A stretch of DNA of 12,502 bases from a virus (taxonomy: Duplodnaviria > Heunggongvirae > Uroviricota > Caudoviricetes), in the IMG/VR virus record IMGVR_UViG_2698536590_000008, positions 1 to 12,502 of that record; one strand, given 5' to 3'. The notes under the pieces were generated by a model. That model saw nothing but the letters and a program-made list of their open reading frames with translations, was not told where the DNA came from and did not search any database. Shown in pieces: positions 5,593 through 12,296 of the stretch. Position 1 is the first letter of the stretch, and each line of letters begins with the position of its first letter. A program made the translations under genes and the position numbers.

Positions 5593-7022
5593 TACTCAAT
5601 CCTTATCTGAGCACCAGACAGAGTGACAGGTGACTTCGTGATAACGCGCAATTTGAAGCCGACATTTTTCCTGATGCGCCCTACTCGCTTCCACAAAACG
5701 CGTTTGTCGTAAACGAACGGTTCATTCTGCTCAATCATCTGCTCACGCCCGTAATTTATGCCGTCAGTGGTTGCAGAGAGAAAAAGGCGGTCAGCATACT
5801 GCGCAACTCCAGTTGACGATTCAACTTCAAGGTCGAAAACTCTGGCGTTATCCGCTTTGAACAGAGGAGTAAACAGCAGATGTTCCTGTTGCTTGTCGTA
5901 CTGGCTGCTGATGTCGAATTGCAATTTCCCGGTCACCGATTCCAGTTTGTCGCCGCACGTTATCTGATTTCCTTCGTAAATGAAGTCGATAGCGCGGTAC
6001 ACATCGTCATACAGGCCTGTTTTCAACACACACCATTGCGGACCATTGGCGCTTGAAGATGCGTCGTACACGAGAACATGGCGCGGAAGGTGGATAATCA
6101 GCAACTCATGAGCATCAAATCGCAGCGATTCCATCACACCATCAGCCAGTTCATCAGCAGTGTAGGAGCGGAGGATTTTCTCAATGCTCGCGCTGGCGAT
6201 TGGTGACACCTGACCGGAGCCGATGATGTATACAGACGGCGCACCTGTTGCCGGATTGCTGATGAACGCATACGAGTCAGCAAACGGCGTTTTGCAGTAA
6301 GTCCCGGCAATGCCTTTCTGCACCATCAGCGATGGCTGTGCGACATACAGAGCAGCCCCAACAGTGGTTGCACCAGTCAGGGAGAAATATTCAATCGTCG
6401 ACGAACCAAAGCAGACTATGAAGTCTCGCCATGTACCTATGCCGATGATGCCGTCAGGCTGCGACTCTGCACGATATTGTGCGCTGTATCGGTCAGGATG
6501 CGATTCGTCTTCAAGGTCAGTGATAAACCATGAATCAGTTCCGTCTTTTGACCACGCATAACGCCCACGTAAGCGCGTAATGTCGCGAACCGAACCTAAC
6601 TCATACTGCGTAAATCCGCTGTCTGTAGGCCAGTTTGAGACGGTTTTAACCGTGCCATCATAGCGATACTCAACCAGTTGACCATTAACGCCTACAGCCT
6701 GAGATGTTCGACCATGCGCCATTGATACGCGACCACTTCCGGCGACGTCACCGACTTCGCTTTCGCCTTTGTAGAGCTTGCCGCCACACACACGATAGAC
6801 AGCATTCTGCGCCATGTTGTACTCGACGCCGCGCGATACACCGTTCACATCAGAGCGTTTGGCAATGCCCGGGAATGAGCGAAGATATCCGCTGCTGTTC
6901 AGGATTTCTTTGGGGGTTGCCAACATATTCACTGGCAGATAGTCGATATAGTCGGCGTTTCGAAAGTCTTTGCCGACACCTTTCATAAGCGGAAGTTGCT
7001 GAAGAGGAAGAGTGTAGAGCAA
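5592..7022 (-). CDS. Tail hub / head-completion protein, P22 gp10-like (476 aa)
   Basis: ORF track 476 aa; [40 protein letters not shown] and length match P22 gene 10 product as recalled. Start is TTG at 7022, the first start codon after the in-frame TAA at 7071-7073; the first ATG is at 6986-6984. Stop overlaps the needle gene start. Confidence 0.8.
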
Positions 7023-7042
7023 AGGATAAAGCTCACCGGAAA

Positions 7043-7162
7043 GAAGTAAATAACAAAATACTTGCTGACCTTATCAAGGTTGGCGCATCAGAAGATGTTG
7101 CTAAAAATATCATAACAGCCATCGTAAAAGGCGAAGTATTCGCAACAAAAATAACCTACTAA
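7043..7162 (+). pseudogene. Start-less C-terminal coding fragment (...NKILADLIKVGASEDVAKNIITAIVKGEVFATKITY*) upstream of cIII
   Basis: Plus-strand frame is open from 6989 to TAA at 7160-7162 with no ATG/GTG/TTG in frame; its 5' part overlaps the gp10 start region. Consistent with the 3' remnant of a gene truncated at a deletion or rearrangement junction. Left boundary approximate. Confidence 0.35.
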
Positions 7163-7186
7163 TAAAACCAACATAAGGAACCACCC

Positions 7187-7318
7187 ATGATTTACGCAAT
7201 CGCGGGAGGCGCTCGCATGGGTGCCTTCCAATTAAATGAATCTTTACTTGAACGAATCACCCGTAAATTACGTGACGGATGGAAAAGAGTTGAGGTCTTA
7301 TTATGCGCAATGAAATAG
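7187..7318 (+). CDS. cIII: CIII-like protein (43 aa)
   Basis: ATG at 7187 with AAGGA SD 7 nt upstream; translation MIYAIAGGARMGAFQLNESLLERITRKLRDGWKRVEVLLCAMK contains the ESLLERITRKLRDGWKR core I recall from lambda CIII; below the ORF-track size cutoff. Confidence 0.7.
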   Translation: MIYAIAGGARMGAFQLNESLLERITRKLRDGWKRVEVLLCAMK

Positions 7319-7711: not shown

Positions 7712-8317
7712 ATGAGCAAAGAATTTTACGCAAGACTGGCAGCTATTCAGGAGAACTTGAACGCGCCAAAGAATCAGTACAACTCATTCGGCAAATATAA
7801 ATACAGAAGCTGCGAAGACATTCTTGAAGGCGTTAAGCCGTTACTGAATGGTCTGTTTTTATCAATCAGCGATGAAGTTGTGTTGATTGGTGATCGGTAT
7901 TACGTGAAAGCCACGGCAACTATTACCGATGGCGAAAACAGTCATACGGCAACCGCTCTTGCACGAGAGGAAGAAAGCAAGAAAGGAATGGATTCTGCAC
8001 AAGTTACGGGAGCTACAAGCTCTTATGCACGCAAGTATTGCCTCAATGGTTTGTTCGGCATTGATGATGCGAAAGATGCAGATACAGACGAGCATAAACA
8101 TCAGCAGAACGCAGCAGCAAAGCAATCAAAACCATCACCTACACCTGAACAGGTTCTAAAAGCATTCACTGACGCAGCAATGCAGAAAAACACCGTGGAA
8201 GAGCTTAAACAGGCGTTCGCCAAAGCGTGGAAGATGCTCGAAGGCACACCGGAGCAGCACAAAGCGCAGGACGTTTACAACATCAGACGAGACGAATTAG
8301 AAGGAGCGGCTGCTTAA
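7712..8317 (+). CDS. erf: Erf single-strand annealing recombinase (201 aa)
   Basis: ORF-track protein from internal ATG 7712: MSKEFYARLAAIQENLNAPKNQYNSFGKYKYRSCEDILEGVKPLL...ATITDGENSH...SSYARKYCLNGLFGIDDAKD matches P22 Erf as I recall it. The track's upstream extension (TTG 7682) is unlikely to be the start. Confidence 0.8.
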   Translation: MSKEFYARLAAIQENLNAPKNQYNSFGKYKYRSCEDILEGVKPLLNGLFLSISDEVVLIGDRYYVKATATITDGENSHTATALAREEESKKGMDSAQVTGATSSYARKYCLNGLFGIDDAKDADTDEHKHQQNAAAKQSKPSPTPEQVLKAFTDAAMQKNTVEELKQAFAKAWKMLEGTPEQHKAQDVYNIRRDELEGAAA

Positions 8318-8700
8318 TGGCACATTCGATTACTGTAAGACTAAACAAGCCCGCAAGAGAGTTTCAGGCCGGGGAAAATATCGGATTCAACATCCGTGCT
8401 GGCGTTCAGTATTACGATCGCCAGACAAAAAAGAAAGAATGGACAAACTACAGCGCCGTTGTATTTGCCAAGCCGGGAGCGCAAGCGGATTACTACCGTA
8501 GTGTTCTTGTTGAAGGTGGCATTGTGGAAATTACCGGAGAAAACATCAGGGTTGATGTTTATCAGGGGCAAAATGGTCAATCAATCACTCTTGAATTACT
8601 GAATGCAAAGATTGGATTTGCAACTTCAGGAAACAGCCAACAGCAGCAAAGTAGCAATCATCAAAATCATCCTGAATACGACGATTCAATCCCCTTCTAA
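8317..8700 (+). CDS. Single-stranded DNA-binding protein-like (127 aa)
   Basis: ATG at 8317 overlaps the erf stop (TAATG) with AAGGAG SD 10 nt upstream; OB-fold-like core (WTNYSAVVFAKPGAQADYYRSVLVEGGIVEITGENIRVDVYQGQNGQSITLEL), a Gln-rich linker and the acidic tip DDSIPF typical of bacterial SSB C-termini (compare DDDIPF). Confidence 0.65.
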   Translation: MAHSITVRLNKPAREFQAGENIGFNIRAGVQYYDRQTKKKEWTNYSAVVFAKPGAQADYYRSVLVEGGIVEITGENIRVDVYQGQNGQSITLELLNAKIGFATSGNSQQQQSSNHQNHPEYDDSIPF

Positions 8701-9321: not shown

Positions 9322-9485
9322 GAGGGCTTGCATACAATCCCGGCATTCTTCCGGCAGAAATGATTATTCGCCAACGCGTAAAGCCAATGCCATCGAGAGA
9401 GGAATTGCTTAAGAGAAATTCTTTTCCATCAGTGAATCAAAACAAATATCTGAATGCGATGTGGCGCAAAGGAGGCAGCCAGTGA
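9318..9485 (+). CDS. Hypothetical small protein (55 aa)
   Basis: ATG at 9318 overlaps the previous stop (ATGA); product [55 protein letters not shown]; fills an otherwise unexplained 160-bp gap; below the ORF-track cutoff. Confidence 0.4.
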
Positions 9486-10126
9486 ATAACCGCTTTTACA
9501 TGATGTGCTTGCGTGAAACTGTGGGTAATAACGCTTCATTCCATTGCCATAACGGCAATGGTTACAGTTCTAATATCGATCGCGCTCATGTTTACACGCT
9601 GGAAGAAGCCCAAAAAGCCTGGAATTGTGGTCGAGATATCGATCAGCCTGTTTGCGCTGATAGCGTGGATGCAATGGCTGTGTGGCACGTTGATTGCCAG
9701 TACATCCCTACAGAAAACCTGATTGAGCCAGATTGCACTGCGTATGTGGCCTACAAAAAAGGTAGCTGGAACGGCAACGATGTTTACTGGCTTCAACACG
9801 GTGGATTGCCAACAGATGACTTCAGTAAAGCGACCATCTTTAGCGTCGCCAACAAAAACGAACCAGGAATAGTTTGGTTGCCATTTTCCATTGCTGATTC
9901 AGCAAAGCGCCGGACGTTCAATATCAATAACTTTAACCGCAGAACAATGGTTCAGGGCGCAGGTTTGGTCATGCCTGACTGGTTGAAAAAGCAGAACAGA
10001 AGAAAGAAGTCGCGAAGCGGGAAGGTGCGTTGGAATTGTCCGCATTGCGGAAAAATCACCTGGCAGCACAACCCATATGATTTTGAAGGCTGTAGTGATT
10101 ACAACTGTGAAGGATGGCGAGAATGA
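9482..10126 (+). CDS. Cys/His-rich protein with C-terminal zinc-ribbon motif (about 214 aa), unknown function
   Basis: Track ORF 9461-10126; preferred start GTG 9482 (AAGGAGG SD at 7 nt, overlapping the previous stop), or ATG 9500. C-terminus [44 protein letters not shown] has a basic patch plus CxxC...C....C; N-terminal half has several Cys/His. Confidence 0.55.
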
Positions 10127-10670
10127 CAATTGACTATCAGGCACTGCGTGAAAAAGCAGAAAAGCAACGTGTGGTGTATGGTCGCTCGAATATGGAGAGG
10201 AGAGATTTGATGGTGATGATGCACTAATTCATCGCGAGGCTGCTGGATATATTCCCATTTGCAGAATTGAAGGAGCGCATCCAGAAAGCGGTTTCGATGA
10301 AGATTTCCAAATGGAACAGCAGGCCAATGCTGAATTCATCGCCGCAGCCAATCCAGCTACCGTGCTGGCACTACTAGATGAAAGGGAAAGAAACCAGCAA
10401 TACATCAAACGCCGTGACCAGGAGAACGAGGATATTGCGCTAACGGTAGGGAAGTTGCGCGTTGAGCTTGAGGCAGAAAAACAGCGGGCAAAGGATCTGT
10501 TTATGGAAAATGCTCGGCTTAAGTCAGGTATAGCCGGTCTGATACACCTCGGTATTCGATATGCAGATGTTGAGGTCATGAAAATTGCTGGAGATGCCCA
10601 GCTTTCTACCCCATGCACTGACAGCATCATAAACAGCATTGCAACAGGCATTCGCATCAAAGGAGAGTGA
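10123..10670 (+). pseudogene. Ead/Ea22-like protein gene, apparently disrupted by a 1-nt frameshift
   Basis: ATG at 10123 (overlapping upstream stop) opens a 34-codon ORF ending at 10227; a second frame is open from 10152 to 10670 (track ORF 10311-10670). One added A in the A4 run at 10160-10163 joins them into a roughly 183-aa protein [20 protein letters not shown]...EFIAAANPATVLALLDERERNQ..., which resembles prophage Ead/Ea22-like proteins from memory. Confidence 0.45.
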
Positions 10671-10945: not shown

Positions 10946-11590
10946 ATGACCACTATTACCAAAGAACGTATTGAATTGTTCATTAAAAATCCGCTTGAAA
11001 ACGGACTTACCCGTGGCGAACAAATGGAACTGGCACGGATTGCACTGGCATCACTGAAACGCGAACAGATTCGCCACGAGCATGCCAAATGGTCTGACTC
11101 CACATTTGGCTGCGTTGGCCCCATTGGTCCACTGAAACACCTCTCAAAAGAGGCACTGGAAGCCGCAGCCGAACCAGACGATCTTAGCGAGTGGGCTGAT
11201 ATGCAGTTTCTGTTGTGGGATGCACAGCGCCGTGCTGGCATCAGCGATGCTGAAATTACCGCTGCTATGGAAGATAAATTGAAGATTAACATGGAGCGCC
11301 AGTGGCCTGAACCAAAAGATGGTGAGCCTCGCTTGCACATTAAAGAACCCGGCAACTCTCCGGTAACTCCGGATGGTTGGATAAGCTGTAGTGAGCGAAT
11401 GCCTGAAATTAGACAAACAGTTATTGGATGGAATGGATATGCAGTTAGACAATGCGTATATACAAGGAATGGATACGCCAAGACACAGAAAGGCAGAGAG
11501 CCAAGGTTTGAAACCTCAACTGGTATATGGCATGGAGTAACCCACTGGATGCCGCTACCAGAACCGCCGCAGGAGGTTAACCGCGGCTAA
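10946..11590 (+). CDS. DUF550/DUF551-type prophage protein (N-terminal dATP/dGTP pyrophosphohydrolase-like domain, C-terminal DUF551), 214 aa
   Basis: ORF track 214 aa; ATG with AGGAG SD at 6 nt; N-terminal region (HEHAKWSDSTFG...) resembles the MazG-like dNTP pyrophosphohydrolase domain common in enterobacterial prophages; C-terminus (PDGWISCSERMPE...GIWHGVTHWMPLPEPP) fits the DUF551 pattern. From recall. Confidence 0.6.
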   Translation: MTTITKERIELFIKNPLENGLTRGEQMELARIALASLKREQIRHEHAKWSDSTFGCVGPIGPLKHLSKEALEAAAEPDDLSEWADMQFLLWDAQRRAGISDAEITAAMEDKLKINMERQWPEPKDGEPRLHIKEPGNSPVTPDGWISCSERMPEIRQTVIGWNGYAVRQCVYTRNGYAKTQKGREPRFETSTGIWHGVTHWMPLPEPPQEVNRG

Positions 11591-11690
11591 CCTGCAACTT
11601 GCCGTCAAAGGTGAATAACAATCCTCGCACTCGCGGGGATTTCTTTTATCTGAACTCGCTACGGCGGGTTTTGTTTTATGGAGATGATAA

Positions 11691-11847: not shown

Positions 11848-11872
11848 AAGCCGCCTGATGGCGGTTTTTTAT
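11848..11872 (+). terminator. Rho-independent terminator-like hairpin with U-tract
   Basis: AAGCCGCC (11848-11855), loop TGAT, GGCGGTTT (11860-11867) gives an 8-bp stem including one G-U pair, followed by a T6 run (11865-11870). Confidence 0.55.
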
Positions 11873-12269: not shown

Positions 12270-12296
12270 GAGCCGCTATATGGCGGTTTATTTTTG
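12270..12296 (+). terminator. Terminator-like hairpin with U-rich tail, related in sequence to the 11848 hairpin
   Basis: AGCCGC (12271-12276), loop TATATG, GCGGTT (12283-12288) gives a 6-bp stem including a G-U pair, followed by TATTTTT; lies 40 nt after the stop of the 114-aa gene and 15 nt before the xis SD. Confidence 0.4.

Follow-up and report, generated by a model that had tools for sequence, protein, structure and literature searches.

The window analysed here, a 12,502-nucleotide stretch of DNA, is a P22-like prophage. Its minus strand encodes ejection proteins, the tail needle and the head-closure protein gp10, and its plus strand carries an early-left operon. In this operon cIII, kil, erf, an SSB-like gene, abc2 (anti-RecBCD), DUF5405 and DUF2737 precede the gene studied here, which is followed by a disrupted Ead/Ea22-like gene, phrog_1714, a dATP/dGTP pyrophosphohydrolase–DUF551 fusion, phrog_1229 and an excisionase-like gene. 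The first-pass annotation had assigned the gene to the accessory (ea) region of a P22-like phage, and it does lie there, between abc2/DUF2737 and Ead/Ea22 in the early-left region.

The gene occupies positions 9482–10126 on the plus strand and encodes a 214-residue protein; this assignment draws on the sequence, the family HMM, relatives and alleles. The first-pass annotation had placed the open reading frame exactly, with its GTG start at 9482 and its TGA stop at 10124–10126. A Shine–Dalgarno sequence, AGGAGG, can be read directly on the same strand at 9470–9475, 6 nt before the GTG. At the upstream end, the TGA stop of a 55-aa DUF2737 gene overlaps the GTG start (GTGA); at the downstream end, the ATG at 10123 of the Ea22-like N-terminal fragment overlaps the TGA stop (ATGA). 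Because stops and starts overlap at both ends, the gene is translationally coupled to both neighbours within the operon. A promoter search near the gene returned one weak promoter-like site upstream only, and the gene appears to lack a promoter of its own, its coupling to the upstream gene being visible in the sequence. An Rfam scan of the whole window returned nothing.

That this reading frame is a genuine gene under constraint, beyond a chance ORF, is established by its relatives, by the presence of the identical protein sequence in many public assemblies, by the integrity of its alleles (55 of 56 distinct alleles were intact) and by a pN/pS of ~0.25 across the 56 distinct alleles compared.

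The protein matched the phrog_2457 HMM with E=1.6e-118 and 395 bits, residues 1–214 aligning to profile positions 1–220 of 222, and on this match we place it in phrog_2457, the family that includes P7 Upf87.6. Other members are hypothetical proteins of SJ46, IME10 and Av-05 and a Vibrio H20-like ‘putative zinc finger protein’. The window gene shares 94–98% DNA identity with these members (98% with the P7 homologue), and we found no difference that sets it apart from them. The earlier statement that no family could be recognised therefore held in part: none of the relatives is characterised, but the databases already hold the family as phrog_2457 and P7 Upf87.6, both without a function. The former is annotated ‘unknown function’, and PGAP names its members ‘hypothetical protein’.

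Relatives fell into 158 clusters at 90% identity and 894 clusters at 50% identity, the latter spread over the Gammaproteobacteria. Among 5,426 complete E. coli genomes the gene was present in 280 (5%), with 181 placements on plasmids and 109 on chromosomes. Copies from Acinetobacter, Methyloprofundus and Vibrio were 46–57% identical to the window protein, and a search of IMG/VR for relatives returned near-identical copies only. The gene is thus conserved across many temperate phages, phage-plasmids and plasmids. For the analyses below we used alignments of 38 relatives, of 124 relatives, and of 80 relatives with only 20–48% identity to the query.

The edges of the gene in the window lie close to the edges of a block of shared DNA. 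Identity of 96–98% with P1/P7-type phage-plasmids began at position 9471, 11 nt before the start codon, and ended at ~10150–10158, ~25–30 nt past the stop, a little way into the Ea22-like gene and beyond the shared MTIDYQALR codons. These sharp boundaries around the gene indicate a single-gene mosaic cassette. The phages Sf6 and HK140 do not carry the gene at this position, where Sf6 has an annotated ‘boundary sequence’.

The window prophage itself is a deletion remnant. At the junction (7001–7186) gene 10, whose 5′ end is at 7022, abuts cIII, at 7187, and everything expected between the two is missing: PL, gene 24, the immunity, replication and lysis genes, terminase, portal and coat. The same remnant, integrated beside sbcB, is present in several assemblies (L138, L139, L142 and L143), and the gene 10–cIII junction was absent from complete E. 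coli RefSeq genomes and phage records. Because the remnant lacks PL and the immunity region, and only the one weak promoter-like site lies upstream, the window copy of the gene, though intact, may be unexpressed, silent cargo.

Several neighbouring features of the operon can be described briefly. Between erf and abc2, positions 8317–8700 encode a 127-aa protein that matches the PHROG SSB family phrog_44 and terminates in an acidic tip (DDSIPF) like that of SSB; it has no Pfam SSB match, and its start overlaps the erf stop. The disrupted Ead/Ea22-like gene spans 10123–10670. Its 34-aa N-terminal fragment (10123–10227) ends in a stop, the remainder of the protein lies in another frame, which opens at 10152 and has an ATG at 10311, and the Pfam Ead_Ea22 model aligned over profile positions 54–139 only. 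The fusion of a dATP/dGTP pyrophosphohydrolase (PF04447) with DUF551, 214 aa long, is encoded at 10946–11590 in the same operon. Four GC-rich hairpins with T runs resembling terminators lie on the plus strand between the last operon ORFs, upstream of the excisionase-like gene (11620–11641, 11652–11671, 11848–11867 and 12270–12289); the operon-end region held 12 terminator-like sites against 5.5 expected from shuffled controls.

We then considered the architecture of the protein. It contains 10 Cys (4.7%) and 7 His, and every motif quoted in the first-pass annotation was found: FHCHNGNG at residues 20–27, WNCGRD at 47–52, VCADS at 57–61, HVDCQY at 69–74, PDCTAY at 83–88 and CPHCG at 186–190, together with C204 and C209. 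The description of the N-terminal half as rich in Cys and His fits the window copy, which has six Cys and five His in residues 1–110, but these residues are not conserved. Across 124 relatives, C9 was kept in 35%, C22 in 27%, C49 in 16%, C58 in 14%, C72 in 38% and C85 in 20%, and most relatives have W in place of H21 and K in place of H23. Because each Cys was found in only 14–38% of relatives, we abandoned an N-terminal metal site; the Cys and His residues here are a lineage-specific composition of the enterobacterial branch.

Residues 1–152, read earlier as a metal-binding half, instead form a tandem duplication of a ~70-residue alpha/beta domain. In an AlphaFold2 model built from the 38-sequence alignment (mean pLDDT 92.8, pTM 0.76), residues 5–71 follow the order beta-hairpin, helix, strand, helix, strand, and residues 88–145 repeat the same secondary-structure pattern. 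Comparison of family profiles by hhalign, residues 1–80 against 81–152, gave a probability of 98.1% with E=1e-13 over 68 columns. On the basis of model secondary structure, conservation and hhalign, repeat 1 (aa 1–80) corresponds to positions 9482–9721 and, with the joint repeat alignment as further support, repeat 2 (aa 81–152) to 9722–9937, both on the plus strand. The module is mildly acidic, with a mean charge of −4.4 and a pI of 5.6.

Conserved positions are found in both repeats. Repeat 1 has G15, G27-Y28, A35, A43, R51, P56 and D71-x-Q73 conserved family-wide, and repeat 2 has the G98-N99-D100 hairpin turn, A117 and R143; four of these (D71, Q73, G98 and N99) were invariant in the 80 sequences at 20–48% identity to the query. 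A joint alignment of both repeats revealed a shared G-(S/N)-(N/D) hairpin turn, aromatics, T-x-(D/N)-(L/F)-x-x-A, P-(W/L)-P and, ahead of the last strand, a pair of basic residues. Many of the ‘invariant’ residues are thus equivalents of one another across the two repeats and look structural. Those kept beyond the shared pattern are Y28, R51, P56 and D71-x-Q73 in repeat 1 and R143 in repeat 2.

The duplicated module is followed by a basic segment and a predicted zinc ribbon. Residues 153–184 (positions 9938–10033, plus strand), delimited by the family alignment, the model and charge, comprise a conserved R-x-M-x-Q-x-A-G-L-x-x-P motif, forming a short helix and a loop, and then a Lys/Arg-rich helix. 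In the 214-aa protein, nine of the 15 residues at 169–183 are K or R; across 124 relatives residues 151–184 have a mean net charge of +7.2, and the segment is strongly basic family-wide. Residues 185–214 (positions 10034–10123, plus strand) form the predicted C4 zinc ribbon, recognised by a Cys motif conserved in relatives, with C186 encoded at 10037–10039, C189 at 10046–10048, C204 at 10091–10093 and C209 at 10106–10108. Of these, C186, C189 and C204 are kept in 97–98% of 124 relatives (C204 itself in 97%), the fourth Cys lies 1–5 residues past C204, and 106 of the 124 have the full CX2C-(11-19)-C-X(1-5)-C motif. The AlphaFold model places strands at 182–185 and 192–195. Two Cys knuckles, conserved in relatives, place the segment in the C4 zinc-ribbon class. 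The first-pass annotation had picked out both the Lys/Arg-rich patch and the CPHCG...C....C ribbon, and both hold; the predicted zinc-ribbon tail is a conserved feature of the whole family.

The tail did not fall into any named zinc-ribbon family compared. Against Zn_ribbon_3, Zn_ribbon_Com, HVO_2753_ZBP, YnfU, IS1/IS1595 Zn and Nop10p, the best Pfam/NCBIfam scores were 11–14 bits against cut-offs of 27–36 bits, and a Pfam search with 80 diverse relatives returned only scattered sub-threshold matches of the C-terminus to assorted zinc-ribbon families. The same layout, a basic helix and then CxxC...C...C, occurs in eL43/L37a, an rRNA-binding zinc ribbon: target residues 154–206 aligned to eL43 residues 8–61 in ~10 orthologues, at E values of 0.1–1.6 that are not significant. 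The target model had no fold-level match to eL43, and the resemblance is best regarded as an analogy of design, with no evidence of homology. The small restriction-alleviation proteins Lar and Ral likewise combine a CPxCG zinc knuckle with a place among the early accessory genes of prophages and plasmids; Lar proteins, unlike the 214-aa protein, are ~60 aa long and have no repeat module. The Lar model PF14354 matched neither the target nor any of 80 relatives at E<=1; as a positive control it detected a true Lar on a Citrobacter plasmid (L003), 5 kb from a homologue of our gene.

Searches against characterised families gave the same result for the protein as a whole. Pfam, NCBIfam and PADLOC searches with the 214-aa protein returned nothing above noise, and no PDB sequence was matched significantly by the protein alone, by a profile of the family or by a merged profile of the single repeat. 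A PDB fold search with the AlphaFold model found no neighbour, and a Pfam search with 80 diverse relatives found no match to the repeats. Remote homology search and fold comparison, both proposed in the first-pass annotation, thus yielded no confident, well-characterised family, and its failure to recognise one was borne out across all of these databases. The duplicated domain, for which these searches returned no known relatives, is newly recognised here, and, as a confident AlphaFold model without a PDB neighbour, it is possibly a new fold. The sole PADLOC-DB match, to a homing-endonuclease model (E=0.05, 11 bits), was at noise level and gave no indication of a defence gene.

Two candidate functions were considered and rejected. 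A tyrosine phosphatase, noted in the P7 record, would need a C-x5-R motif; the loop HCHNGNGY has none, Y28 standing in the place of the Arg, C22 is present in only 27% of relatives, and no phosphatase family was matched in Pfam or NCBIfam. A ferredoxin-type protein is not supported either: the FDH3-beta match (E=0.036) scored 14 bits against a cut-off of 240, and no ferredoxin family was matched. The literature searched yielded no mention of phrog_2457, Upf87.6 or six member accessions, the supplements of two phage accessory-gene screens by Silas et al. contained no matching sequence, and a paper modelling the exo-xis region does not cover this ORF.

To place the family in context, we compared the surroundings of its members elsewhere. 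An O157:H7 prophage carries a homologue downstream of a CI-like repressor, and in P7 the homologue is the third gene of the ‘hea’ operon, which is controlled by C1 operators. With the lambdoid PL operon, this gives an early, repressor-controlled context in three regulatory systems. Homologues are also found in ~90–100 kb P1-like phage-plasmids, and large MOBH/IncT plasmids carry a ~52%-identical homologue in long co-directional arrays of small uncharacterised genes, the same arrays encoding Lar, CcdAB and PsiA. Vibrio and Pseudomonas phages have the homologue beside genes for DNA methyltransferases and for Gam-like proteins or exonucleases: in Vibrio phage D53 it is near a Mu Gam-like gene and a DNA methyltransferase, in Pseudomonas F116 three methyltransferases are nearby, and in a Pseudomonas element C5 and Dam methyltransferases with overlapping stops and starts adjoin it. 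Judged by their gene neighbourhoods, family members always lie in repressor-controlled early or accessory gene arrays.

The Pseudomonas operons are themselves tightly overlapping, as seen in P. aeruginosa pPHPALO552 (L006, 3907–7481) and phage F116 (L010, 188–6400). They combine a 28–30%-identical homologue with two or three orphan C5/Dam-like methyltransferases, an arrangement that is recurrent, not universal.

Across 46 diverse species-level loci there was no conserved partner gene. Among the 128 genes within two positions of the homologue at these loci, the commonest neighbours (integrases, Ea22-like genes and replication genes) each occurred at 4–5 loci, and a recognisable anti-restriction neighbour was found at a minority of loci only. 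The neighbour functions that do recur are counter-restriction, recombination or SOS (Abc2, Gam, methyltransferases, Lar, CcdAB and PsiA).

What might such a protein do? With no partner gene across 46 loci, it probably works by itself, on a target of the host or on DNA, and 46–57% identity across distant hosts is consistent with a conserved target. Taken together with the spread of the family over very different elements, these observations point to action, while the element establishes itself or early in lytic growth, on a conserved target that belongs to the host or is associated with DNA. The reading we favour, tentatively, is a stand-alone early protein for host takeover or counter-defence that would bind nucleic acid through its basic zinc-ribbon tail. 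The protein would be translated from early transcripts under repressor control, either on entry of the element into a cell or upon induction. Its tail would bind nucleic acid or a nucleic-acid-bound host machine, and its repeat module, in which repeat 1 bears the best-conserved polar surface (Y28, R51, D71 and Q73), would engage a target conserved across Gammaproteobacteria. By taking over the host or countering its defences, the protein would help an incoming element to establish itself; its gene moves as a single-gene cassette among temperate phages, phage-plasmids of the P1 type and large plasmids. In favour of the reading is also the consistent, though sub-threshold, profile match of residues 154–206 to eL43/L37a (E 0.1–0.5).

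We infer three things from these features: that the protein binds nucleic acid, what kind of target it has, and that it serves takeover or counter-defence. Zinc ribbons also mediate protein–protein contacts, so the tail does not establish nucleic-acid binding. The suggestion of host interaction or anti-defence, already made in the first-pass annotation, comes from genomic context; in regions so crowded with unrelated genes, such context amounts to guilt by association. The reading is further tempered by the absence, in the searches made, of homology to any protein of defined activity. Anti-defence proteins evolve fast, and conservation this strong is unusual among them; it would also fit an enzyme or a regulator.

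A bolder form of the favoured reading, which we regard as doubtful, is that the protein founds a new class of effectors that mobile elements use while establishing themselves. In these effectors the duplicated N-terminal domain, as an undescribed fold, would capture a conserved host nucleic-acid machine or immune sensor, and the tail would anchor it to DNA or RNA. If true, a single cassette would be of use to lambdoid phages, P1-like phage-plasmids and conjugative plasmids. The family is in any case common, with members in phages that are Stx-converting or P22-like, in P1-like phage-plasmids and in large resistance plasmids; it has no assigned function, Pfam entry or structural relative and is a source of a possibly new protein fold. 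Its mobility as a single gene and its place in the first-expressed arrays make it a well-defined candidate for anti-defence and host-takeover screens; should these yield no phenotype, it would stay among the ordinary conserved hypothetical proteins that phages carry as accessory genes.

A different role for an early protein of this kind would be to regulate the lysis–lysogeny decision or host transcription, acting on RNA polymerase or DNA, and not on defence systems, in the manner of small zinc-binding proteins such as Ea8.5 or Orf73/TraR. We consider this unlikely, but it has several points in its favour. The gene occupies the same slot, between recombination genes and xis, and exo-xis genes are reported to shift lysogenisation and induction, two of them being zinc-binding. 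A basic helix with a zinc ribbon would suit binding to DNA or RNA polymerase, and high conservation fits a core host machine as target. Lambda Ea8.5, a homeodomain/zinc-finger hybrid, is also a zinc-binding protein of the early-left lambdoid slot; the 214-aa protein, however, has more than twice its length and consists mostly of the duplicated alpha/beta domain. TraR and lambda Orf73, DksA-like proteins that bind the RNA polymerase secondary channel, likewise have a C4 zinc site and are early phage or plasmid genes, and a gene for a TraR/DksA protein adjoins a homologue in one Pseudomonas element. Neither likeness extended to sequence or fold: PDB chains of Ea8.5 homologues were matched by neither the sequence profile nor the fold, the DksA/TraR Pfam model matched neither the target nor 80 relatives, DksA/TraR structures gave no match, and there was no similarity to any transcription factor. 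The family is also carried by large plasmids and P1-like elements that lack a lambda-type lysis–lysogeny circuit.

The invariance of D71, Q73, G98 and N99 in divergent relatives raises the prospect of an enzyme acting on nucleic acid or nucleotides, with Y28, R51, D71, Q73, N99, D100 and R143 as an active site at the repeat interface and the zinc ribbon delivering it to its substrate. Conservation is unusually strong for an accessory gene, and neighbours are often DNA methyltransferases or nucleotide hydrolases. Yet most of the conserved positions, namely the G-N-D turn, the aromatics and the helix-capping Ala, are equivalent in both repeats and look structural, and no enzyme class was matched by fold or motif, the PADLOC match at E=0.05 being the sole one of nuclease type. 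We therefore hold an enzyme to be decidedly improbable. The nucleotide hydrolases seen near homologues are, in the O157:H7 prophage (L137), the yfdR 5′-deoxynucleotidase and a member of the dGTPase family and, on the Citrobacter plasmid, a HAD-domain protein.

Less probable again is a defence or exclusion factor by which a prophage or plasmid would guard the lysogen against other phages. Carriage by prophages and plasmids would suit it, as would the dGTPase-family gene that lies ~1.6 kb downstream of the homologue in the O157:H7 prophage, upstream of the integrase. PADLOC gave no significant match, however, and a gene in repressed early operons, translationally coupled and with no promoter of its own, should be silent in the lysogen. 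Scarcely credible, finally, is a metal-, redox- or cluster-binding protein built on the Cys/His-rich N-terminal half of the window copy, or the ‘putative tyrosine protein phosphatase’ of the P7 annotation, to which the resemblance of H21-C22-x-x-G25 to the start of an HCxxGxxR loop lends some colour: the poor conservation of the N-terminal Cys largely refutes both, the loop has Tyr for Arg, and no phosphatase or ferredoxin family was matched.

A last observation concerns the longer relatives of the family. P0192, P0203 and P0208, searched for fusion partners, had no Pfam match, and the extensions of P0192 and P0208 had no PDB sequence match. In P0208 (392 aa), residues ~215–392 follow the zinc ribbon; they begin with a Cys/Asp/Glu-rich stretch (CCPECYHHDCDDDCMCDCDEECDGRCEKKCPQHDCEICNG), past which an apparent third copy of the repeat domain can be made out by eye (FVVEFQNGCWLDG...TCNLESAKIFRTERSA). 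From this apparent third copy, the copy number of the domain may vary within the family.
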